The notes under the pieces were generated by a model. That model made no database searches. It had not been told where the DNA came from and worked only from the letters and a program-made list of their open reading frames with translations. A program made the position numbers and the translations under genes. Source: a virus. From it: a DNA stretch of 15,617 bases. Numbering within the stretch: position 1 is the first letter of the stretch; every line of letters begins with the position of its first letter. The stretch lies in UHGV virus genome UHGV-2204636; one strand, given 5' to 3'. Of the stretch, positions 166-15,617 are shown one piece after another.

Positions 166-408
166 TTAGTAACGCCAGCGGTCATAACGCTGATATTTCG
201 GCACTTTTGGTGCTTTAATCGCCTTAATAACCCACACCACCGCAATCGCCAGTAGTAACCACGGCAGCAACTTAATCATCAATGCCAGCATACCGCCGAG
301 GAACATAATGGCCGTCGCCACAACCAGCGCGGCGATAATGCCCAGCAACGAAACGCCGGTGACCATCAGCATGACAAAAAAGCCAATCACAAAAAGTAGT
401 TCCAGCAT
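166..408 (-). CDS. pspG: Phage shock protein G, small inner-membrane protein (80 aa)
   Basis: Translation from the internal ATG at 408 (MLELLFVIGFFVMLMVTGVSLLGIIAALVV...KVPKYQRYDRWRY) is two hydrophobic helices and matches my recollection of E. coli PspG; GGGAG Shine-Dalgarno 6 nt upstream; the longer ORF to 618 is an upstream in-frame extension with no coding character. Confidence 0.88.
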   Translation of the reverse strand: MLELLFVIGFFVMLMVTGVSLLGIIAALVVATAIMFLGGMLALMIKLLPWLLLAIAVVWVIKAIKAPKVPKYQRYDRWRY

Positions 409-443
409 GATGCACTCCCAAATATGAAATCTCTTGCTGGCAT

Positions 444-459
444 TACAAGAATCATGCCA
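444..459 (-). promoter_or_regulatory. Candidate sigma54 (-24/-12) promoter of pspG: TGGCATG-N4-TTGTA
   Basis: Minus-strand sequence TGGCATGATTCTTGTA about 35-50 nt upstream of the pspG ATG; pspG is known to be PspF/sigma54-dependent. The -12 element is TTGT rather than the consensus TTGC. Confidence 0.45.
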
Positions 460-480
460 AAAATAATCTATTGATTTAAC

Positions 481-511
481 AGCAAAACGCCCCGCGACGG
501 TGCGCAGGGCG
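481..511 (-). terminator. Rho-independent terminator downstream of dusA
   Basis: Minus-strand hairpin CGCCCTGCG-caccgt-CGCGGGGCG (+ coordinates 488-511) followed by TTTTGCT, about 30 nt after the dusA stop codon. Confidence 0.5.
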
Positions 512-541
512 TGGTGAATTTGACTATTTTTTGGTGAAAAG

Positions 542-1579
542 TTAACGCTTATCCGCCACCAGTTTGAGCGCGTGTTCCAGCACATTAATGTCTGCACCCG
601 CTTTATGGGCATTTTCACTTAAATAACGCCGCCACTGCCGCGCGCCAGGAATACCCTGGAACAAGCCCAACATATGCCGGGTAATATGACCGAGATACGT
701 CCCCTGGCTGAGTTCACGCTCAATGTACGGATACATGGCGCGCACTACCGCCACCGGATCGGCATCGATATCCGAGGAACCAAAGATCTCCCGGTCTACC
801 GCCGCCAGAATACCCGGATTCTGATACGCCTCGCGCCCGACCATCACGCCATCCATATGTTGCAGGTGTGCTTTGGCCTCTTCCAGCGACTTGATACCAC
901 CGTTAATCGACATTGTCAGATGCGGAAAGTCACGCTTCAGTTGATACACACGCGGATAATCGAGCGGCGGGATCTCACGGTTTTCTTTCGGACTTAACCC
1001 CGAAAGCCAGGCTTTACGTGCATGGATGATGAACATCTCACACTCGCCTTTGCCGGAAACGGTGTTGATGAAATCGCAGAGAAATTCATAGCTGTCCTGG
1101 TCGTCGATGCCAATACGCGTTTTCACCGTCACCGGAATCGACACCACATCGCGCATCGCTTTCACGCAGTCGGCAACCAGCTGCGCATTACCCATCAGAC
1201 ACGCACCAAACATGCCGTTCTGCACCCGGTCAGACGGGCAGCCGACATTCAGGTTGATCTCATCATATCCACGCGCTTCTGCCAGCTTCGCACACTGTGC
1301 CAGCGCCGCCGGATCGCTACCGCCGAGTTGCAACGCTACCGGATGTTCTTCTTCACTGTACGCCAGGTAATCACCTTTACCGTGAATAATCGCCCCTGTG
1401 GTCACCATTTCGGTATACAGCAACGTATTGCGGGAAAGCAGACGCAAGAAATAGCGGCAATGTCTGTCCGTCCAGTCGAGCATAGGAGCAATGCTAAACC
1501 GAGAATTCCAGTAAACACCAGTTTTTTCAGGCATCACGCTGGTTTGATTAATTTTTTGTGTTTCATGATTATCGTGCAT
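542..1579 (-). CDS. dusA: tRNA-dihydrouridine synthase A; 5' end probably supplied by the integrated element; alternative start at 1534 (MPEKTG...)
   Basis: 345-aa ORF with the Dus TIM-barrel hallmarks ([31 protein letters not shown]); matches E. coli DusA as I recall it. No strong SD before either candidate start. Confidence 0.9.
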
Positions 1580-1611
1580 TTTTGAACATTTCAGGCTATT
1601 TTTCTCGCGTT

Positions 1612-1648
1612 AGGTTCCCGCACAGGTTCCCACGTTTTATGGGAACCC
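1612..1648. promoter_or_regulatory. Three GGTTCCC(A/G) motifs in the dusA-int divergent intergenic region: two direct copies plus an 8-bp inverted repeat GGTTCCCA-N7-TGGGAACC
   Basis: Motif at 1614-1620, 1626-1632 and inverted at 1641-1647, between the divergent dusA and integrase starts; candidate operator or recombinase/RDF binding sites. Confidence 0.3.
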
Positions 1649-1667
1649 GAAATAACGAGGTCGTGTA

Positions 1668-2765
1668 ATGGCGTACTATAACATAGAGAAACGACTAAAA
1701 TCCGATGGCACACCACGCTATCGCTGTAATGTGATTATCAAAGAAAAAGGTGTTATCACTTACAGGGAAAGCAAAACATTCCCTAAACATGCTCATGCCA
1801 AAACATGGGGCACACAGAAAGTGATGGAATTAGATCTATATGGCATTCCATCATCAAATGCAGTTGACGGACTTACAGTCCGTGACTTACTACACAAATA
1901 TTTAAATGACCCAAATGCCGGAGGTAAAGCAGGCCGTACTAAAAGATATGTGCTGGAACTGCTTATGGATAGTGACATCTCCGCGATCAAACTATCTGAA
2001 CTGACAGAAAATGACGTAATTGAACATTGCAGGCTAAGAAACAACGCTGGTGCAGGTCCTGCAACAGTCAGCCACGATGTTAGTTATCTTGGCAGTGTTC
2101 TGGATGCGGCCAAACCTGTATACGGAATTAATTACACATCAAACCCGGCGAAAAGCGCTCGCCCATATCTACTTAAACTTGGTTTGATTGGTAAATCAAA
2201 CCGTCGTAATCGTAGACCAGCATCTGATGAACTGGACATGCTCATTGCAGGCCTTCAACAACGATCTACTCATAAATGCTCAAAAATTCCGTTCGTTGAT
2301 ATCCTCAAATTTTCTGTATGGTCCTGTATGCGAATCGGAGAAGTATGCCGGTTACGATGGGAAGATCTCGACCAGGAACAAAAATCTATACTCGTAAGAG
2401 ACAGGAAAGATCCACGCAAAAAGGAAGGTAACCACATGAAAGTAGCCTTGCTTGGGGAAGCCTGGGATATCGTCCAACGACAGCCCCAAAAATCGGAATT
2501 CATTTTTCCATATAACAGCACTTCTGTTACTGCGGGATTTCAGAGAGTAAGAAGCAAATTAGGTATTAAGGATCTGCGATACCATGATTTGCGTAGAGAA
2601 GGGGCAAGTCGCTTATTTGAGGCTGGTTTTAGTATTGAGGAAGTCGCCCAAGTTACAGGGCATCGTTCATTAAACGTGCTATGGCAGGTATATACCGAAC
2701 TGTATCCGAAATCTTTACATAATCGTTTTGAAGAGCTCCAAAGGAGCAGAAATAAGACCTCTTGA
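1668..2765 (+). CDS. int: Tyrosine recombinase / phage integrase, in the position of a dusA-associated integrase
   Basis: 365-aa ORF with a GAGG SD; C-terminal catalytic signature (...RYHDLRREGASR... GHRSLNVLWQVY) typical of tyrosine integrases; divergent from and adjacent to the 5' end of dusA. Confidence 0.9.
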   Translation: MAYYNIEKRLKSDGTPRYRCNVIIKEKGVITYRESKTFPKHAHAKTWGTQKVMELDLYGIPSSNAVDGLTVRDLLHKYLNDPNAGGKAGRTKRYVLELLMDSDISAIKLSELTENDVIEHCRLRNNAGAGPATVSHDVSYLGSVLDAAKPVYGINYTSNPAKSARPYLLKLGLIGKSNRRNRRPASDELDMLIAGLQQRSTHKCSKIPFVDILKFSVWSCMRIGEVCRLRWEDLDQEQKSILVRDRKDPRKKEGNHMKVALLGEAWDIVQRQPQKSEFIFPYNSTSVTAGFQRVRSKLGIKDLRYHDLRREGASRLFEAGFSIEEVAQVTGHRSLNVLWQVYTELYPKSLHNRFEELQRSRNKTS

Positions 2766-2811
2766 CACTGTTTATCCATACAGTTAAAAATAATGCTGTA
2801 TACAAACACAG
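2762..2811 (+). promoter_or_regulatory. sigma70-type promoter (TTGACA -35, TAAAAA -10 at 17 bp) with a LexA SOS box CTGTATACAAACACAG
   Basis: Perfect -35 hexamer at 2762-2767 overlapping the int stop; CTGT-N8-ACAG with AT-rich spacer at 2796-2811, between the -10 and the RBS (GGAGGG) of the dinI-like gene. Confidence 0.6.
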
Positions 2812-2826
2812 TATGGAGGGACTTTT

Positions 2827-3075
2827 ATGCGTATTGAAATCTGCATAGCCAAAGAAAAAATGACTAAAATGCCAACCGGTGCTGTGGATGCGTTAAAGGA
2901 AGAATTAACCCGACGCATCAGTAAGCGTTATGACGATGTTGAGGTGTTAGTAAAAGCCACCAGCAATGATGGCCTTTCTGTTACACGCACCGCAGATAAG
3001 GATTCTGCAAAAACTTTTGTTCAGGAGACTCTGAAAGATACCTGGGAATCTGCTGACGAGTGGTTTGTTCACTAA
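2827..3075 (+). CDS. DinI-family damage-inducible protein (prophage DinI-like)
   Basis: 82-aa product [11 protein letters not shown]...[16 protein letters not shown] aligns by eye with E. coli DinI (MRIEVTIAK...ETWESADDWFV); strong SD; preceded by a LexA box. Confidence 0.85.
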
Positions 3076-3328
3076 TAAACACGTAAAATCTGTAACGGCT
3101 GGAAATCATTCAATACTCGCACTATCGAAAGTTCACCAGCCAACCGCAGCGCGTTCTTGCATACGACGTGGCTGCGGTCTCAACTCCGTCCCCCACCAAT
3201 CATGATTGGGCAGTACCAGTACAGCACTAGTAAAAACTGGAAATAAGCAGTCTCAGCAAAATACCGGCCAGACGGTGAGAAGACAAAAAAGATACGCAAA
3301 GTAGCCGCGGCCCTTAGTGACATGAAAT

Positions 3329-3349
3329 CCCGCTATACGGGCTTTTTTG
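3329..3349 (+). terminator. Weak terminator-like hairpin (CCCG-ctata-CGGG) followed by CTTTTTTGT
   Basis: Short 4-bp GC stem with a T6 run, inside the 350-bp non-coding gap downstream of the dinI-like gene. Confidence 0.3.
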
Positions 3350-3423
3350 TATCTGCACACGATTGATTATTAGGTCCGTATAGCTAATAGTGGTCTTAAC
3401 CTACATATAGAATCAGAGACTTT

Positions 3424-4119
3424 ATGAAAAAGGAAATACTCAAGGCTCTTTGCCCTACATGCGGTGGGTTACGTAACTGCACTGTGCATGGGAAGCTAAC
3501 CACTAGCTGGGAGGATTCCCAATATCCAGTTTATGGGTACCATTACCATCACCTACTCCAATGCAATGGCTGTGATACTGTCTTCTATCACCACAACGAA
3601 CACTTCAGTGAGCATACTACCCACGAATATCGTGATGGTGAATTTGTAGAAACGCCTATAGATATGATCACTACCTATCCTGCCGCTGAAACATTTCAAG
3701 CTCCGATATGGTTATCCAAGCTTGAATCAGTTGATCGTCAGCTCTTTCAAATATTTAATGAAATGTATTCTTCATATACTTCTGACCATTTCATTCTTTC
3801 GTCCATCGGTTTACGGACGATTTTTGATCGAACTGCTGAACTGTTACAAATTCACCCCGGTTTGCCGCTTGGTGAAAAAGTTGAAAAATTAAAACAAGAT
3901 GGAGTCATAGGCGACACTGAGGCATGCGTTATATCTTCAGTAATTGATGCAGGAAACGCCGCCGCACATCGCAGTTGGAGCCCGAATAAAAGTGAGTTCG
4001 AACAAATGCTAGAAGCTATAGAAAGTTTTGTCCAAAGAACTATCTTGGGCAAAAAATCACTTGAACATATAACCAAACAACTCCCACCTCGGGTTACAAG
4101 ACCTAAAAATAGTGCATAA
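3424..4119 (+). CDS. Hypothetical protein: N-terminal 4-Cys zinc ribbon (CPTC...CNGC) plus C-terminal DUF4145/HEPN-like helical domain; candidate defence or abortive-infection cargo gene
   Basis: 231-aa ORF, visibly AT-richer than the flanking tail genes; CxxC-N32-CxxC plus a His-rich stretch at the N-terminus; C-terminal LGEKVEKLKQDGVI...IDAGNAAAHRS resembles the conserved core of DUF4145 as I recall it (unverified). Confidence 0.75.
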   Translation: MKKEILKALCPTCGGLRNCTVHGKLTTSWEDSQYPVYGYHYHHLLQCNGCDTVFYHHNEHFSEHTTHEYRDGEFVETPIDMITTYPAAETFQAPIWLSKLESVDRQLFQIFNEMYSSYTSDHFILSSIGLRTIFDRTAELLQIHPGLPLGEKVEKLKQDGVIGDTEACVISSVIDAGNAAAHRSWSPNKSEFEQMLEAIESFVQRTILGKKSLEHITKQLPPRVTRPKNSA

Positions 4120-4145: not shown

Positions 4146-4702
4146 CTATGGTTTACTTGCTACAGGGAATTTTTTATACACCGTTGAAATACCCAGATCA
4201 TAAATCAGTGCGACTTGCTGCTGATATATTCCCGATTCAATCAACCTGCCAGCCTGCCCCCATTGTTCTACTGTCAGCTTTGGCTTTCGCCCACCGTTCC
4301 TCCCTTCTTGTCGTGCTGCGGCAAAGCCGCCCTAGTACGTTCGACAATAAACTCTCGCTCCATTTCAGCCAGGGCACCCATCACATGAAAGAAAAAGCGC
4401 CCCATTGGTGTGCTGGTATCAATAGCATCCGTCAGGCTGCGAAAATTAACGCCACGTTCGCGCAACTCTTCCACCAGCACGACAAGATGCCGCATACTGC
4501 GCCCCAGTCGGTCCAGTTTCCAGACCACCAGCGTGTCACCTGCCGATAATGTCCTGAGCAGCTTTTTCAGTCCTGGTCTGTCGGACTTTGTACCGCTTAT
4601 CTTGTCTTCAAAAATCAGCTCACATCCTGCACAGTTCAACGCATTACGTTGTAGATCGGTGTTCTGGTCATTTGTTGATACGCGAACATAGCCAATAAGC
4701 AT
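4146..4702 (-). pseudogene. pin: Serine recombinase / DNA invertase of the Pin/Gin/Hin/Cin family, interrupted by a 1-nt frameshift near 4320-4323
   Basis: Frame A (4322-4702) encodes MLIGYVRVSTNDQNTDLQ...GRFFFHVMGALAEMEREFIVERTRAAL (catalytic domain, Ser in VRVSTNDQ). Frame C (4146-4322) encodes AAARQEGRNGGRKPKLTVEQWGQAGRLIESGIYQQQVALIYDLGISTVYKKFPVASKP (HTH domain), matching e14 Pin. Total length 557 nt is not a multiple of 3. Confidence 0.7.
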
Positions 4703-4731
4703 GATAGCTCCTCCTGACAAAAACAGGAACG

Positions 4732-5103
4732 ATGCCATTTGCGCGCTATTTCTGCATTTTCATAAACGTTGGTTTGGGAGAAGCGGCAAAACGGAATGTG
4801 GGAACAGGGAAAAATCAGATACCTGATATGTCAGCTTATTCATCAGGATCTGGCTGGCAAAAATTGCCTGATGGTTCAATTGAACAGTGGGGAAGAATTA
4901 ATTTCCCGTATAACGCCGCGGCGGTATCTACAAATGTGACTTTCACCATTCCTTTTACGCAGGAGCCAGACGTAGTGATTGTATATGACGGCGGTTTTGG
5001 TGGTGGGAATATGTGGGGCGCAACTAACTGGACGAAAACAGGTTTCGTTGCTCATTGTAACTATGGCTTTGAAGGTGGAGCCTTCTACGCGAAAGGGCGT
5101 TAA
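4732..5103 (+). CDS. Silent alternative tail-fibre C-terminal cassette (Sv'-like); the ATG at 4732 is probably fortuitous, the cassette is expressed only after inversion
   Basis: ORF shares the VGLGE junction with the expressed fibre gene at the crossover site, then diverges (AAKRNVGTGKNQ...); no independent N-terminal fibre domain. Confidence 0.55.
   Translation: MPFARYFCIFINVGLGEAAKRNVGTGKNQIPDMSAYSSGSGWQKLPDGSIEQWGRINFPYNAAAVSTNVTFTIPFTQEPDVVIVYDGGFGGGNMWGATNWTKTGFVAHCNYGFEGGAFYAKGR
4757..4782. other. Invertase crossover site (gix/pix-like 26-bp imperfect palindrome), invertase-proximal copy
   Basis: TTTTCATAAACG-TT-GGTTTGGGAGAA; its reverse complement shares TTCTCCCAAACCAA with the site at 6573-6598; resembles hix/gix half-sites. 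Confidence 0.55.
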
Positions 5104-5105
5104 TT

Positions 5106-5546
5106 ATGAAATATTTGTATGTTGATAATCTGGCGTACCCTTATGCCCTCCAGTCTGTTTACGCTGCAAAAGGCCAATGGCCCGAAGGTAAAGGCGTGGA
5201 TATAGACGAAGCTATTTTCAGGGAATATTTCCATGATACGCCGCCTGACGGTAAGTACAGAATTACCGGAGACGATGGAATGCCAGCATGGGCAGATGTT
5301 CCACCGCCAACACGTGAAGAACAAATTGCATCAGCCGAAACTAAAAAGCAGCAATTGATTAATCAGGCCAACGATTATATGAACAGTAGACAATGGGCTG
5401 GTAAAGCGGCTATTGGTCGTCTGAAAGGTGAGGAACTGGCGCAATATAATTTGTGGCTGGATTATCTGGACGCACTGGAGCTGGTCGATACTTCCAGTGC
5501 ACCAGATATTGAATGGCCTACTCCTCCGGCAGTTCAGGCCAGATGA
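5106..5546 (+). CDS. Tail fibre assembly protein (Tfa / Mu U'-like), partner of the silent cassette
   Basis: 146-aa product with the conserved Tfa C-terminal motif (...NLWLDYLDALELVDTSSAPDIEWPTPP); immediately follows the cassette ORF. Confidence 0.85.
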   Translation: MKYLYVDNLAYPYALQSVYAAKGQWPEGKGVDIDEAIFREYFHDTPPDGKYRITGDDGMPAWADVPPPTREEQIASAETKKQQLINQANDYMNSRQWAGKAAIGRLKGEELAQYNLWLDYLDALELVDTSSAPDIEWPTPPAVQAR

Positions 5547-6120
5547 CATCCGGCGCGGTGCTGGTATCTGTTGCCGTCACCGCGTCAATGTAATCCAGCA
5601 CAGCGTTAAGTCGGGTTGTTTCTGCCTGCGTCAACTTCCGTCCGGCCTGTAATTTCAGCTGAATCAGACTAATGGAAGCCATTGCTGCATCAATCAGTGA
5701 CTGGCGCTGTGCTTCTGCTGCGTCTACTGCGGCACTATGCTGTGCCTCAGTATCCGTCACCCATTTCTCACCATCCCATTTATCGTATGGCGTTAACGGG
5801 GCGATAGTGGTTGTATTTTCGGGGTAATCACCCAGAGCTGTGATTTCTTTGGCGTCTCCCGTTTCGGTGTTATAGACGATTTCACCGCGATGGTCTGGCA
5901 CATATTCCCATGAGTTTAAATCTGCCGAACGGCAGATTGCATAACCAGCCTTATGTATACCAGGTTCATCCAGACAGGAATATGCCGGGATACCAACACC
6001 AACGGCAAGATATTCATTTGAAGTGGAAATATATTCCCGAGTTTCACCATCATAGCTATAGACGGTAATATCCCCCGCCTTCGTGGCAATAAGCTCGCTA
6101 TTTAATACAGCGTTATCCAT
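5518..6120 (-). CDS. Tail fibre assembly protein (Tfa / Mu U-like), partner of the expressed fibre
   Basis: 200-aa product with C-terminal ...LNAVLDYIDAVTATDTSTAPDVIWPELPEE motif; convergent with and overlapping the U'-like gene by 29 nt. Confidence 0.85.
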   Translation of the reverse strand: MDNAVLNSELIATKAGDITVYSYDGETREYISTSNEYLAVGVGIPAYSCLDEPGIHKAGYAICRSADLNSWEYVPDHRGEIVYNTETGDAKEITALGDYPENTTTIAPLTPYDKWDGEKWVTDTEAQHSAAVDAAEAQRQSLIDAAMASISLIQLKLQAGRKLTQAETTRLNAVLDYIDAVTATDTSTAPDVIWPELPEE

Positions 6121-6878
6121 TATTCAGCCCTCACGATAAAGTTAAATGCAATATTTCGCGCACGTGTTTCCGTTGATGTTCTGGCAACAAGTGATGCATC
6201 AAAATAATAATTCGCCTGTTTATATGTACCACCTATCGCAATTGGTGTGAGATTTGGTTGCACTATTGAAGAGGTAAATGCGCCGAAAGTATTATTATTT
6301 GTCCCCGTGGTCATATCAAAAAAGCTACCTGTAATATTTTGCAGCGTATCGCTCTGAGCACTCAATAACGCTCGCCCACTGTCCACTCCACGCCCATCAT
6401 CCCAGCCACGAATAAACTCACCCCGCAGATCTGGCAGCACAAGACCGGGGTAAACCAGTGCCAGCTTCGGATAATTTTTAGCTGCAAATGGAGCGCCGTT
6501 ACATTTCAGCCATCCTGTTGGTGGAGTGGCTAAAGGCCACGGAACAGGCACACCAACGGGTAATGCCGAACCTTCTCCCAAACCAAGATTTCCGAGAGCC
6601 GTTTTCACGGTGCCATCCGATTTGATATCGCCAAACGGATTTGAGCGACTCAGTAACAGCGCGTTTAGTGCTGTTAATAACTGGTTTTTTTTAGAAGGAT
6701 CAACATTAATACCGGCAGCGTTCAGGACAGTAATAAGCTCCGACTGCGCATCTCTGACAGCCCCCTGCACGTTATTCAGATGCTCAGCATCAACAATGGT
6801 CCCCAGCTCACCTGTGAGCGGATTACCATCATGGAAAAGATTATCCGGCGTCTGCACCGGTGGCATTAAGGGCCGCAT
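6120..6878 (-). CDS. Tail fibre protein (constant N-terminus about 6586-6878 plus currently expressed variable C-terminus 6120-6585)
   Basis: 252-aa ORF; start overlaps the stop of the upstream gene (TAATG); contains the crossover site at the GLGE codons. Confidence 0.85.
6573..6598. other. Invertase crossover site (26-bp imperfect palindrome) inside the tail fibre gene
   Basis: TTCTCCCAAACC-AA-GATTTCCGAGAG; inverted relative to the site at 4757-4782. Confidence 0.55.
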
Positions 6879-12075: not shown

Positions 12076-14213
12076 TGCGGGCCTCCTGTTGAGCCGCGAA
12101 CGGATTGTTCGCCGTTGTATTCATTAACAGCTGATGCAATTTCACGTCCGTCTAATACCAGCTTTGTGGTGAGGTTAATGGGCTGTGATTTTTGTTGCTG
12201 TTGGGGCAAAAGATAAGACGGCACGCCTGTTGTTGCTGGTGTGTTTTGCCCCATCGTGGCCGGAGAACTCCACCATGATTTGACCTCATCCACGACATCC
12301 AGCAATCCGGGGCGGGCTTTTACTGCATCCAGCATGCGTGCTGACTCACTGGAATAGTTGTCAACCTTAAGCCGCGCACGTGCATCAGCATCACCTCGCT
12401 CAACATGAACAAGTGGCGCATCCTGCATACCCTGATAGAGGGCCAGTGGGGCTAATACCTTGCCAGCTCCGCCACGAATAACGGACCAGGCACGCCCAAG
12501 AGCAGATCCCCCTGCAGTCGGCACTCCACCGCCAGGAGAACCAGGCATTTTTATTCCGCCGCCAGTAAGGAAGTTGAGCCCGGCAAAAGCTACAGCCGCC
12601 GCTGTCATGGCTTTAATGCCCGTGGTGGCACCTGAAATAGCAGTTGTTAATTCAGGATATTCTTTAGCGTAATCAGAAAGTTTTGACGTCAAATCACCAT
12701 ATAAATCGGCGACAGGTTTCATTGCATCCTGCTCAGAGAACATTTTCTCTGATTCAAATTGTTGTGATTTAAAATCATTAGTTGATGAGATCACATCATA
12801 TGAAGCAGCACCAGCGCCAACGGAATCACGCGTTCCTGAAATCTGCTCCTTAATGAAGTCTTTTTTCATTATGCTTGTTTTTAGTGCGGTACTGGCCTGC
12901 TGGTCAGCAACTATTTTCGATGTAATTGAGGAAACTATAATATCCAGTGAGGCAAGGATATCTTTCTCCTTGTCCGTCCCTTTAAATTTCGTAGCCTGAG
13001 CCCGTAATTTCTTCACTCGTGGGTCGGCTGAAACAATACCTGATACTGCATTGGTGAATGCATCAGAAGTATTTACGCCTGAAAGTCGCTGGTCAGCCAT
13101 ATAATCAGCATAGGCAAGCATCCTTCCGTCTTTAGTCCTGAATCTTTTATTTTTTAACGCATTCTGAGTGTCAGCACTGGTGTATTTATCAAGCAGGTTA
13201 TTAACGTTTGTTGATGCAGCGCTATTATCACCTGCTGTTTCAGCGTTAGCCTGTAGCATTGCGAGAATTACATCCAAATCTTTTAACCCTGACATACCTA
13301 CAGCGTTAGCTTTTGTCATGGTTAAAGGTAATGAACCAGCCATATCAGCAAGTTCATATTTACCATTCTCACCAGACCTGATGGTTTTATCAAATACCGC
13401 TGGCAAATCCTCAGCCTTTATATCAAAGTTCTTAATTGCACCAATAGCAATACGAGCAAGGTCATTAGGGTTTGCACCTGAGGCCGTAGCATAACGAGTA
13501 ATATCCGGCAGGATTTTTAATGCCGTTTTATCATCAAGACCACCTGCGAAAAGCGAATTAATAGTTTCCTGTGCAGCCTCCGGTGTTCCACCGCCATAAC
13601 GAACAGCCCCACGGATTGCATTATTGATCTCAGGTATTTTCTTAATACGGTCTGGCGCTGAGAGGTTGTTATAAGCGGTATTTGCAATCTCAGCATTACG
13701 CCGTTCGTAAGCCATCTGACGCTGAACCGGGTCTTTTATAATCATACCCGCAGCAGTTAACCCACCGGCTACTGCTGCCACGGTTGAACCTGCAGCACGG
13801 AATCGCTGCATGCGCGTCATTGAGTCATTGACGCCGCCAAGCTCAGTTCGCAGCGCTTTGACCCTGTCAGTCATGGCCCTGAAAGCCCGGTTCTGCTCAT
13901 TTGCGGACAGCATACCTGTGCGGGTAAGGCGATTATAGGCCGCCATGGTCTGCTGTATTTCGCGCTGTATTTCGCGCTCTGAGCGAATGCCAAGAGTTGC
14001 TCGCGCCGAACTGGCGCGACGGTATTCCTCAATCAGAGAACGGGAGGCACGAATCGCTGTGGTTGAGTTCTGCTGACGGGATTTCGCCAGCTCATCATCG
14101 GTTTTTTGCGCCGCTTTGGTATCCCGGCTGATGCCCTGGAGTGCCTGTTTAAGCACTTTGGAGCCGGTATCACGGGCAAGCAGCTGCAGCGCCAGTTGTA
14201 AGTTACGCGCCAT
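12072..14213 (-). CDS. Tail tape measure protein
   Basis: 713-aa ORF, Ala/Gly/Gln-rich and predicted helical, with a GGAG SD; preceded by the chaperone gene and its frameshift extension. Confidence 0.85.
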   Translation of the reverse strand: MARNLQLALQLLARDTGSKVLKQALQGISRDTKAAQKTDDELAKSRQQNSTTAIRASRSLIEEYRRASSARATLGIRSEREIQREIQQTMAAYNRLTRTGMLSANEQNRAFRAMTDRVKALRTELGGVNDSMTRMQRFRAAGSTVAAVAGGLTAAGMIIKDPVQRQMAYERRNAEIANTAYNNLSAPDRIKKIPEINNAIRGAVRYGGGTPEAAQETINSLFAGGLDDKTALKILPDITRYATASGANPNDLARIAIGAIKNFDIKAEDLPAVFDKTIRSGENGKYELADMAGSLPLTMTKANAVGMSGLKDLDVILAMLQANAETAGDNSAASTNVNNLLDKYTSADTQNALKNKRFRTKDGRMLAYADYMADQRLSGVNTSDAFTNAVSGIVSADPRVKKLRAQATKFKGTDKEKDILASLDIIVSSITSKIVADQQASTALKTSIMKKDFIKEQISGTRDSVGAGAASYDVISSTNDFKSQQFESEKMFSEQDAMKPVADLYGDLTSKLSDYAKEYPELTTAISGATTGIKAMTAAAVAFAGLNFLTGGGIKMPGSPGGGVPTAGGSALGRAWSVIRGGAGKVLAPLALYQGMQDAPLVHVERGDADARARLKVDNYSSESARMLDAVKARPGLLDVVDEVKSWWSSPATMGQNTPATTGVPSYLLPQQQQKSQPINLTTKLVLDGREIASAVNEYNGEQSVRGSTGGPQ

Positions 14214-14216
14214 GGA

Positions 14217-14740
14217 TTATCTCCGTTTGCCGACTTTCTTCCGGCGTTGCGATTTGACAGTGCGGGTTGTGCGGGTGGTAGTTTGCCCGGTTTTCTTTCC
14301 ATGTAACCGGGCAAGTGCTTCGGTGTAGCCGTCGAGTTCCGTTCGGGTCATGCTTCCGATTTGTTGTTCACTGATACCGTATCGCCCGAGGGCGAGGACG
14401 AGGGTTCGGTACCCGGTGAGCTTTTGTTCAAATCCATCCGCTTTTTTTTAATGGCTTCAATCTGAGCATCGATGAGATCGAAATCATCATCATTCAGCTC
14501 GTTAAGGAGCAGCTCCGCCGTAATTTCTTCCTTTGGCACATCTCCGAGGGCAGTAATCGCACACGCCATTACCGCAACACGGTAATACATGTTTGCGGCT
14601 GCGCCTTCGGTAGTGCCGCAGGCTTCATCGGTTGCCCGCAGCGCTTCAATGGTATCGCTCACCACAGGCAGCCTGACGGCAAAGTCAAAATGGACTTTAT
14701 CACCGTATTTAACGCCATATAAAAGCTGCTGCTTTTCCAT
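14217..14740 (-). CDS. Tail assembly chaperone, -1 frameshift-extended isoform (G-T / E+E' analogue)
   Basis: After the slippery site the -1 frame stays open for ~76 codons (ADGFEQKLTGYRTLVLALGRYGISEQQIGSMTRTELDGYTEALARLHGKK...KRR) and stops at 14217-14219, one codon before the tape measure ATG. Confidence 0.5.
14348..14740 (-). CDS. Tail assembly chaperone (lambda G / P2 E / Mu gp41 analogue), zero-frame product
   Basis: 130-aa acidic ORF between the tube and tape measure genes; contains an A AAA AAG slippery heptamer near its 3' end. Confidence 0.75.
   Translation of the reverse strand: MEKQQLLYGVKYGDKVHFDFAVRLPVVSDTIEALRATDEACGTTEGAAANMYYRVAVMACAITALGDVPKEEITAELLLNELNDDDFDLIDAQIEAIKKKRMDLNKSSPGTEPSSSPSGDTVSVNNKSEA
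14441..14447 (-). promoter_or_regulatory. Programmed -1 ribosomal frameshift slippery heptamer A AAA AAG
   Basis: Minus strand reads GCC ATT AAA AAA AAG CGG in the chaperone frame (dnaX-type heptamer). Confidence 0.5.
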
Positions 14741-15128: not shown

Positions 15129-15617
15129 TCAGAGCAGCAAATCAATTCGACCGGCAAAGACGTGCAGGCCATTCACAACATCCGCAGGAATGCGACCGTT
15201 CAACTGGTTAACATCCTGCAGATCGCGCTCAACAATAAGACCGTCTTTGTTGGCATCCACCTCCTCGACAATCTCCAGCTCCTCCAGCTTGTAAAGCACA
15301 TCAAGCAGTTCGCTGCGCACCTTCGGCGGCGTCCTTGAGCTGAGCTTATCGCGCGGGAATCGCAGAGCGATGCGTTCACGGCAGGCCTTGCGCACGTAGT
15401 CCAGCGTTCGGATGGTGGTGATATCCAGCAGCGCCACATCATCCACGCCCTGGGCGTTTTTGGTGTAGGTGCTGATAGCGCGAACGATCTGCACTTTGTC
15501 ACCGGGGCCAATCTCAAACGGCGTAAGACCATTACGCAGGGCGTTCTCCTGCTCGGTTCGCCCTGGCTGACTTTCCACTGCAGTCACATCCAGCGTGCTC
15601 ATCGCAAGGGTGTTCAG
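15129..15617 (-). CDS. Tail sheath protein, C-terminal part (gene continues beyond the window end)
   Basis: Reading frame open to the window edge (…LNTLAMSTLDVTA…); position upstream of the tube gene. Confidence 0.75.
   Translation of the reverse strand: MNTLAMSTLDVTAVESQPGRTEQENALRNGLTPFEIGPGDKVQIVRAISTYTKNAQGVDDVALLDITTIRTLDYVRKACRERIALRFPRDKLSSRTPPKVRSELLDVLYKLEELEIVEEVDANKDGLIVERDLQDVNQLNGRIPADVVNGLHVFAGRIDLLL

Follow-up and report, generated by a model that had tools for sequence, protein, structure and literature searches.

The minus strand of the virus genome UHGV-2204636 carries a short gene between a tail tube gene and a tape measure gene, in a position that recalls the frameshifted pair G/GT of phage lambda and the class of long-tailed dsDNA phages described with it (Levin 1993; Xu, Hendrix and Duda 2004, both as cited in PMC5009743 and PMC2628397). 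The question raised by this locus is whether the gene is likewise read in two frames. For the stretch of 15,617 nucleotides analyzed here (the window), a first-pass annotation had proposed a textbook −1 programmed frameshift in a tail assembly chaperone of the G/GT type, with an extension ending one codon before the tape measure start. We therefore analyzed the gene order, the slip site, the related loci and the possible stimulatory elements.

The tail genes follow each other on the minus strand in the order sheath, tube, chaperone, tape measure (Table 1), and baseplate, fibre and fibre-assembly genes lie downstream of this module. The chaperone belongs to phrog_508, a family that also takes in gp41 of phage Mu (6e-49), and phrog_185 is common to the tube protein of the window and Mu gpM. 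With the Pfam family Gp41_Mu (PF23746), the chaperone gave E=1.4e-4 and 22.3 bits, under the gathering score of 27. Because hhalign, when run directly between the chaperone profile and Mu gp41, returned a probability of 1%, the link to Mu rests on the shared PHROG. The closest complete-genome match was an E. coli chromosome (94% identity), where the locus is part of a Mu-like prophage encoding Mor, a gp16 family protein, a DUF935 portal, a Mu gpT head protein and a DNA circularization protein. Judged by these gene families, the locus is the tail module of a Mu-like contractile-tailed prophage. The lineage itself is a widespread Mu-like prophage group of Enterobacteriaceae. Among deposited phages, megablast of the region gave no match, and tblastn of the predicted fusion protein matched one phage only, Klebsiella ST405-OXA48phi1.1. 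NCBIfam contained no meaningful match for the chaperone, the fusion or the extension.

Table 1 Features of the tail module and of the recoding site in the window.
Feature	Coordinates	Strand	Remarks
Tail sheath, 3' part	15129..15617	-	Runs off the window; phrog_165 5.6e-63; Pfam Phage_sheath_1C 1.3e-16
Tail tube, 124 aa	14741..15115	-	phrog_185 5.6e-33; directly upstream of the chaperone
Tail assembly chaperone ORF (G-like), 130 aa	14348..14740	-	0 frame; ATG 14740 to TGA 14350-14348; phrog_508 3.2e-39
A8 homopolymer	14442..14449	-	K98-K99 and the first two bases of K100
Slippery heptamer A AAA AAG	14441..14447	-	X XXY YYZ register; 0-frame codons AAA 14446-14444 and AAG 14443-14441
Predicted -1-frame extension (T-like part)	14217..14441	-	74 sense codons, ADGFEQ...GKRR; TAA 14219-14217
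Overlap of 0-frame tail and -1 extension	14348..14440	-	Selected frame is -1
ATGA	14348..14351	-	Extension Met31 codon overlapping the chaperone TGA
GGAGA, Shine-Dalgarno of the tape measure gene	14220..14224	-	Inside the last two extension sense codons (CGG AGA)
Tail tape measure, 713 aa	12072..14213	-	phrog_794 3.8e-181; Pfam PhageMin_Tail 2.1e-16

Direct reading bore out the A AAA AAG heptamer that had been placed in the chaperone ORF, both in its position and in its register. Chaperone codons 97-101 are ATT AAA AAA AAG CGG, with G 14441 standing directly after the eight A residues, and the heptamer corresponds to codons 99-100 of 130, i.e. it lies in the 3' part of the upstream ORF. The T at 14450, just before the run, forms a -1-frame TAA (14450-14448) that closes the -1 frame directly 5' of the site. 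From there on the -1 frame is open, reading AAA AAA and then, past the heptamer, GCG GAT GGA... for 74 sense codons (ADGFEQKLTGYRTLVLALGRYGISEQQIGSMTRTELDGYTEALARLHGKKTGQTTTRTTRTVKSQRRKKVGKRR); the approximately 76 open codons of the first-pass annotation are recovered when the count starts at the frame opening. The predicted fusion is 174 aa long (100 chaperone and 74 extension residues). Its stop is separated from the tape measure ATG at 14213 by a 3-nt spacer, TCC (14216-14214), so the claim that the extension ends one codon before the tape measure start holds for the window. Extension residues 1-30 include the peptides ADGFEQK, LTGYR, TLVLALGR and YGISEQQIGSMTR, which only recoding can yield, and the sequence from Met31 onward begins TELDGYTEALAR.

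Such a frame configuration is unlikely by chance. In the tail genes of the window, -1 runs of at least 74 codons start at 1% of 3129 in-frame positions, the median being 8 codons. In all, 18 genes of the window contain 10 X XXY YYZ heptamers that are in frame; A AAA AAG is unique to the chaperone, and only at the chaperone site is the shifted product longer than the 0-frame product. Two other candidates were discarded. A 93-aa ORF (14033..14314, minus strand) overlaps the tape measure start and could be taken for the extension; it lies in the chaperone 0 frame, downstream of the chaperone stop (14740-14314 = 426 = 142 x 3), and is spurious in that role, in agreement with the warning in the first-pass annotation that it is in the wrong frame. 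A second A8 tract, in the tail fibre gene, was regarded as a chance occurrence, lacking conservation in the closest relative and leading to a shifted peptide that does not look protein-like.

In order to follow the site through related loci, we collected 87 chaperone homologues and assembled a comparative set of 67 loci (one genome per species and IMG/VR viral contigs, plus the E. coli locus), 66 of which were evaluable; the chaperones compared are 48-98% identical to the query protein. A slip site and an open -1 frame, which homologues should share if the proposal is right, were both present in 64/66 loci: A AAA AAG occurs at codon 99-104, and the -1 frame spans 68-76 codons, with its stop at a distance of -1, 0, 2 or 3 nt to the tape measure start. 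The two exceptions are a contig with nine A residues, which encodes an in-frame 174-aa fusion, and a contig that ends inside the gene. Even at 48% protein identity the slip site is retained, together with a -1 frame of conserved length that finishes beside the tape measure start, and the extension/tape measure junction (CGGAGATAA / GGGAGATAA) is kept in most relatives. The wobble bases of the lysine codons AAA-AAA-AAG are invariant in 48/48 unique sequences, 19 upstream wobble positions having an average entropy of 1.26 bits, and the base 5' of the A run is T in 45 of these 48 sequences and C in 3.

The two reading frames beyond the site differ in how they are conserved. Chaperone residues 1-100 are conserved, and residues 101-130 form an S/P/T-rich tail, the length of the 0-frame tail after the site varying from 9 to 30 aa among relatives. 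The extension is conserved over its full length, with G10, R12, L16, L18, G19, G22, M31, L36, G48, K50, S64 and R66 invariant. Over the 31 codons of the overlap, the entropy of the nucleotides is 0.68, 0.69 and 1.08 at the first, second and third positions of the -1-frame codons. Single-base codon differences are synonymous in 64% of cases when read in the -1 frame, compared with 16% for the 0 frame and 18% for the non-coding +1 frame. Beyond the slip site it is therefore the -1 frame that is under selection, and no selection on the 0-frame tail was detectable. From the slip site to Met31, the -1 frame contains no ATG, GTG or TTG in any of the 66 loci, and a -1-frame stop precedes the shift point by 2 codons in 58 loci and by 9 codons in 6. 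Because there is no start codon and the frame is closed upstream, the 30 conserved codons can be reached only from the chaperone frame.

These observations bear directly on the view that there is no recoding and that the ATG at 14351 starts an independent 44-aa protein (14351-14217) by translational coupling. This ATG, the codon of Met31, is invariant in 66/66 loci, and the chaperone stop overlaps it as ATGA in 31/66; GenBank MK388859 annotates a separate 38-codon CDS, 41-44-aa proteins are called in many genomes, and phrog_11893 was built from such ORFs. However, the 30 codons upstream of the ATG are conserved as a -1-frame protein (G10, R12, L16, L18, G19 and G22) with a synonymous signature, and they lack a start codon and are closed by the TAA just before the slip site. 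Furthermore, in the other 35/66 loci the 0-frame stop precedes the ATG by 8-50 nt, and no Shine-Dalgarno sequence is conserved at a workable spacing from it. In the alignment with the P2 E' domain, Met31 is matched by an internal Met, and for this reason it may be conserved on structural grounds. Independent initiation may occur at the Met31 ATG in addition to frameshifting; since it cannot account for the 30 conserved codons upstream, a separate small ORF is not a full explanation, and as a replacement for recoding we regard it as very unlikely. The reading that the A8 tract is a DNA-level artefact or phase-variable, and that the true gene is a single in-frame 174-aa ORF with nine A residues, is hardly credible. 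Fused A9 versions do exist (L012, and P0051 with 5 member sequences), but eight A residues are found in 64/66 loci, finished chromosomes of several genera among them, the 0-frame stop and tail persist in all lineages, and A7 variants are about as frequent as A9 variants, as homopolymer errors predict. Because these A7 and A9 variants exist in assemblies, the exact run length is weakly supported by any single assembly, a weakness that does not extend to the 64-locus majority.

The same 174-aa fusion could also arise by standard translation if RNA polymerase added one A on the A8 run to give an A9 mRNA. All of the unique sequences (48/48) have the eight-A run, one additional A leads to the identical protein (IKKKADGF...), as seen in the A9 variants L012 and P0051, the tract is indel-prone in assemblies with both A7 and A9 variants present, and ribosomal stimulators were not found. 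On the other hand, the efficient bacterial cases of polymerase slippage on record involve 9 consecutive A or T residues and not 8 (PMC5009743), and the run length of at least 9 A or T taken to indicate programmed transcriptional slippage in that work contrasts with the 8 A residues in 64/66 loci. Three lysine codons together with the need for the heptamer account fully for the run. Moreover, the third lysine codon is always AAG, although AAA would lengthen the run and favour slippage, and AAG in the A site is the hallmark of -1 ribosomal shifting by Lys-tRNA(UUU) (PMC4066793). The invariant AAG in place of AAA favours a ribosomal mechanism; we consider polymerase slippage unlikely as the source of the fusion and infer that the shift is probably ribosomal.

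Taken together, the evidence points, with a probability that we put at about 0.8, to a G/GT-type recoded tail assembly chaperone pair of a Mu-like contractile-tailed prophage. The proposed gene lies between the tube and tape measure genes on the same strand, with an in-register slip site in its 3' part and a shifted frame that ends at the tape measure start, is under purifying selection and has no start of its own. The gene order, the phrog_508 assignment (3e-39), the conserved site and frame and the selection on the -1 frame thus uphold the assignment to the G/GT type made in the first-pass annotation. According to this model, most ribosomes would translate the 130-aa chaperone and stop at its TGA. 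With Lys-tRNAs on AAA in the P site and AAG in the A site, a small fraction of ribosomes would slip back by one base, read on through GCG GAT GGA... and produce the 174-aa fusion, which terminates just 3 nt ahead of the tape measure gene. If the two products work like lambda G/GT and P2 E/E+E', the N-terminal part common to both would coat or bind the tape measure protein, and recruitment of the tube protein would fall to the extension; as in lambda and P2, both the chaperone and the fusion are expected to be absent from the virion.

The efficiency of the shift depends on whether elements other than the heptamer contribute. A check for a downstream stem-loop, suggested with the original proposal, found none: in the window itself, the 102 nt downstream did not fold more stably than shuffled sequences (z = -0.86), RNAalifold applied to 30 diverse sequences gave -0.33 kcal/mol with three invariant pairs and no covariation, and fold z-scores for the 60 nt downstream in 47 unique sequences had a mean of +0.15, none being below -2. 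By inspection of the upstream 45 nt, which vary among relatives, no SD-like element was common to 52 unique sequences. The site thus shows neither of the parts of a stimulated -1 PRF cassette (a stem-loop or pseudoknot 5-9 nt downstream, and/or an SD-like element 6-17 nt upstream). Because no conserved stem-loop or upstream SD is present, the word textbook applies to the heptamer only. A_AAA_AAG is among the three most efficient -1 motifs in E. coli, where it is under-represented in genes; motifs of this kind without stimulators yield about 0.3%, a figure that the most favourable 3' context raises to about 3.7% (PMC4066793). The supplement to the same study gives a tail assembly chaperone cluster with A_AAA_AAG as a true case. 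As no stimulator is present, the efficiency is probably 0.3% to a few per cent, with the heptamer alone driving the shift, and given the lack of conserved stimulators it may be very low. This range is of the order of the lambda G:GT ratio of about 30:1, a value reported together with the conservation of G-T frameshifting in long-tailed phages (PMC5009743). The site seems, from these alignments and predicted folds, to work without any stimulatory RNA element.

The resemblance to lambda is one of organization. As for G/GT, the interval from the major tail or tube gene to the tape measure gene contains a pair of ORFs that overlap, the first of which has a heptanucleotide -1 slip site in its 3' part. 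The shifted frame extends as far as the tape measure start, and a short abundant product and a rare long one with a common N-terminus are predicted. In contrast to lambda, the slip site is A AAA AAG instead of G GGA AAG, the tail is contractile, and the overlap is extensive: 30 0-frame codons follow the site, without selection at the amino-acid level. No sequence similarity of the window proteins to lambda G or T was detectable.

With Mu the locus has in common the chaperone family phrog_508, flanking sheath, tube (phrog_185) and tape measure genes of the same type, and a transposable-phage genome. The Mu chaperone gp41 uses a -2 frameshift (PMC5009743; PMC2628397), and the Mu gene lacks an X XXY YYZ heptamer in frame; it has only a G5 run, and its open frame is at offset +1/-2 after CGGGGGCG. 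Unlike in Mu, the open frame of the window is at -1 from A AAA AAG and does not follow the -2 pattern. The extension families also differ (phrog_12783 for Mu, phrog_11893 for the window, whose last 44 aa match that family at 1e-20), and a profile comparison of the Mu -2 extension with the window extension revealed no similarity. It is conceivable, though quite unlikely, that within phrog_508 the recoding mode and the C-terminal domain were swapped together, that a free 44-aa peptide is made in addition by termination-reinitiation at the invariant ATGA/Met31, and that polymerase slippage possibly contributes; in that case, chaperone stoichiometry would depend on three products and on two slippage mechanisms.

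The E/E+E' pair of P2 offers a further parallel, P2 also being a contractile-tail phage with a -1 shift and an extension that ends at or overlaps the tape measure gene T. Its slip site, T TTT TTG as annotated in NC_001895, differs from the heptamer of the window, and its E protein belongs to phrog_103 / PF10109, which the window chaperone, unlike E, does not match. In hhalign, the window extension and P2 E' were paired around a motif M[ST]xxEL with E=0.001 and a probability of 21.5%, which is below any threshold. The P2 -1 extension matches PF06528 at 2e-22; among 14 relatives, 3 match this family at E 0.04-0.11 and about 13 bits, against a gathering score of 23, and the window's own extension gave no match to it. 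The extension may thus be said to resemble P2 E' weakly, as a resemblance only.

The heptamer itself is that of E. coli dnaX and of IS911/IS3, with the same presumed slippage of Lys-tRNA(UUU). Sites of the dnaX/IS3 type owe their efficiencies of tens of per cent to an SD-like element upstream and a hairpin or pseudoknot downstream, whereas neither stimulator is conserved at the window site.

Structure prediction added little to these comparisons. The fusion, modelled from the single sequence P0051, gave a pLDDT of 45.6, and the chaperone, modelled from a 12-sequence alignment, a pLDDT of 57.7 and a pTM of 0.44, both being uninformative. MAFFT fusion alignments intended for deeper modelling were unusable, as they aligned the chaperone end (DFDLIDAQIEAIKKK) onto the extension (ELDGYTEALARLHGKK). 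Foldseek against the PDB, run with these low-confidence models, found nothing below E=1. A sequence-profile search of the PDB found nothing below E=0.9.

The sequence comparisons support the view that this is an ordinary, unannotated case of a well-known phage recoding event; its main value lies in annotation, and knowledge of tail assembly is unchanged by it. It would also provide a clean natural example of A AAA AAG apparently operating without a stimulatory RNA element, and it would mean that close relatives of Mu do not share its unusual -2 shift, a -1 shift being used within a Mu-like tail module. In public records, the extension is either unannotated or has its last 38-44 codons called as a separate hypothetical gene, and in RefSeq a gap of 134 nt precedes the tape measure gene. 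This gap and phrog_11893, listed in PHROGs with unknown function, should be replaced by the chaperone and its frameshifted 174-aa fusion. In some public assemblies, the A7 and A9 variants of the homopolymer lead to spurious fused or truncated proteins.

Directly before the A8 run in the tail assembly chaperone gene, on its 5' side, the wobble position (14450, minus strand, and homologous sites) held T in 45 of the 48 unique sequences and C in 3. This T spans four codon families (ATT, CTT, GTT and GCT) and forms a TAA in the -1 frame. An influence of the E site or of sequence context on shifting may account for the preference, as may the avoidance of a longer A run.

Forms of the chaperone tract with nine or seven A residues were found among public assemblies, the sequences concerned being the homologous chaperones P0051, P0074, P0063, P0078, P0080, P0085 and P0088-P0091 and the related locus L012 (L012:1793-1802). 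P0051 and L012 carry an in-frame 174-aa fusion; the other products are chaperones cut short as ...KKSG or chimeric +1/-1 ORFs. Homopolymer sequencing errors are the most likely source of these A7 and A9 versions, and genuine variation in tract length is conceivable.

Compared as protein, the final helix of the chaperone part, DDFDLIDAQIEAIKKK (14441-14500), is similar to a segment of the -1-frame extension, TELDGYTEALARLHGKK (14290-14350). MAFFT repeatedly paired the two with each other because of this closeness. The likeness could be a chance helix-helix similarity or the trace of an ancient internal duplication. At 14211-14219, the extension shares a reading frame with the tape measure gene in the window, and TAA TCC alone lies between them. 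Other lineages have a gap of -1, 0 or 2 nt, and the shared frame is not conserved; therefore, a fusion of extension and tape measure by stop-codon read-through is unlikely to be meaningful.

The tail fibre gene (6120-6878) holds another A8 tract (6684-6693, minus strand). It reads TCT AAA AAA AAC, with an in-frame A AAA AAC and a -1-frame TAA directly 5', the same arrangement as in the chaperone tract. The -1 frame that follows is open for 61 codons, and its peptide is rich in W, R and C and non-coding in appearance. The tract is absent from the closest relative, L001, whose homology to the window's fibre gene is confined to the first 107 nt. Its occurrence in the fibre gene is probably due to chance.

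The region 4274-6878 looks like an invertible host-range switch resembling the Mu G segment: the invertase gene adjoins the inverted repeats, one of which lies within the fibre gene, and the alternative fibre C-terminus and second fibre-assembly gene are oriented opposite to the active pair.

Features of the fibre region and of the left end of the window
Feature	Coordinates	Strand	Match
pspG, host gene	166-618	minus	
dusA, host gene	542-1579	minus	
Tyrosine integrase	1668-2765	plus	
DUF4145 protein	3424-4119	plus	
Gin-like DNA invertase	4274-4738	minus	phrog_125, 2e-75
Inverted repeats, 20 nt, 1.8 kb apart	4764-4783 and 6572-6591		
Alternative fibre C-terminus	4732-5103	plus	
Second fibre-assembly gene	5106-5546	plus	
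Active pair, fibre and fibre-assembly	5518-6878	minus	

The left end of the window (166-4119) looks like a dusA-associated integrative element abutting the end of the Mu-like prophage, whereas the E. coli relative has ydbL next to the prophage end.
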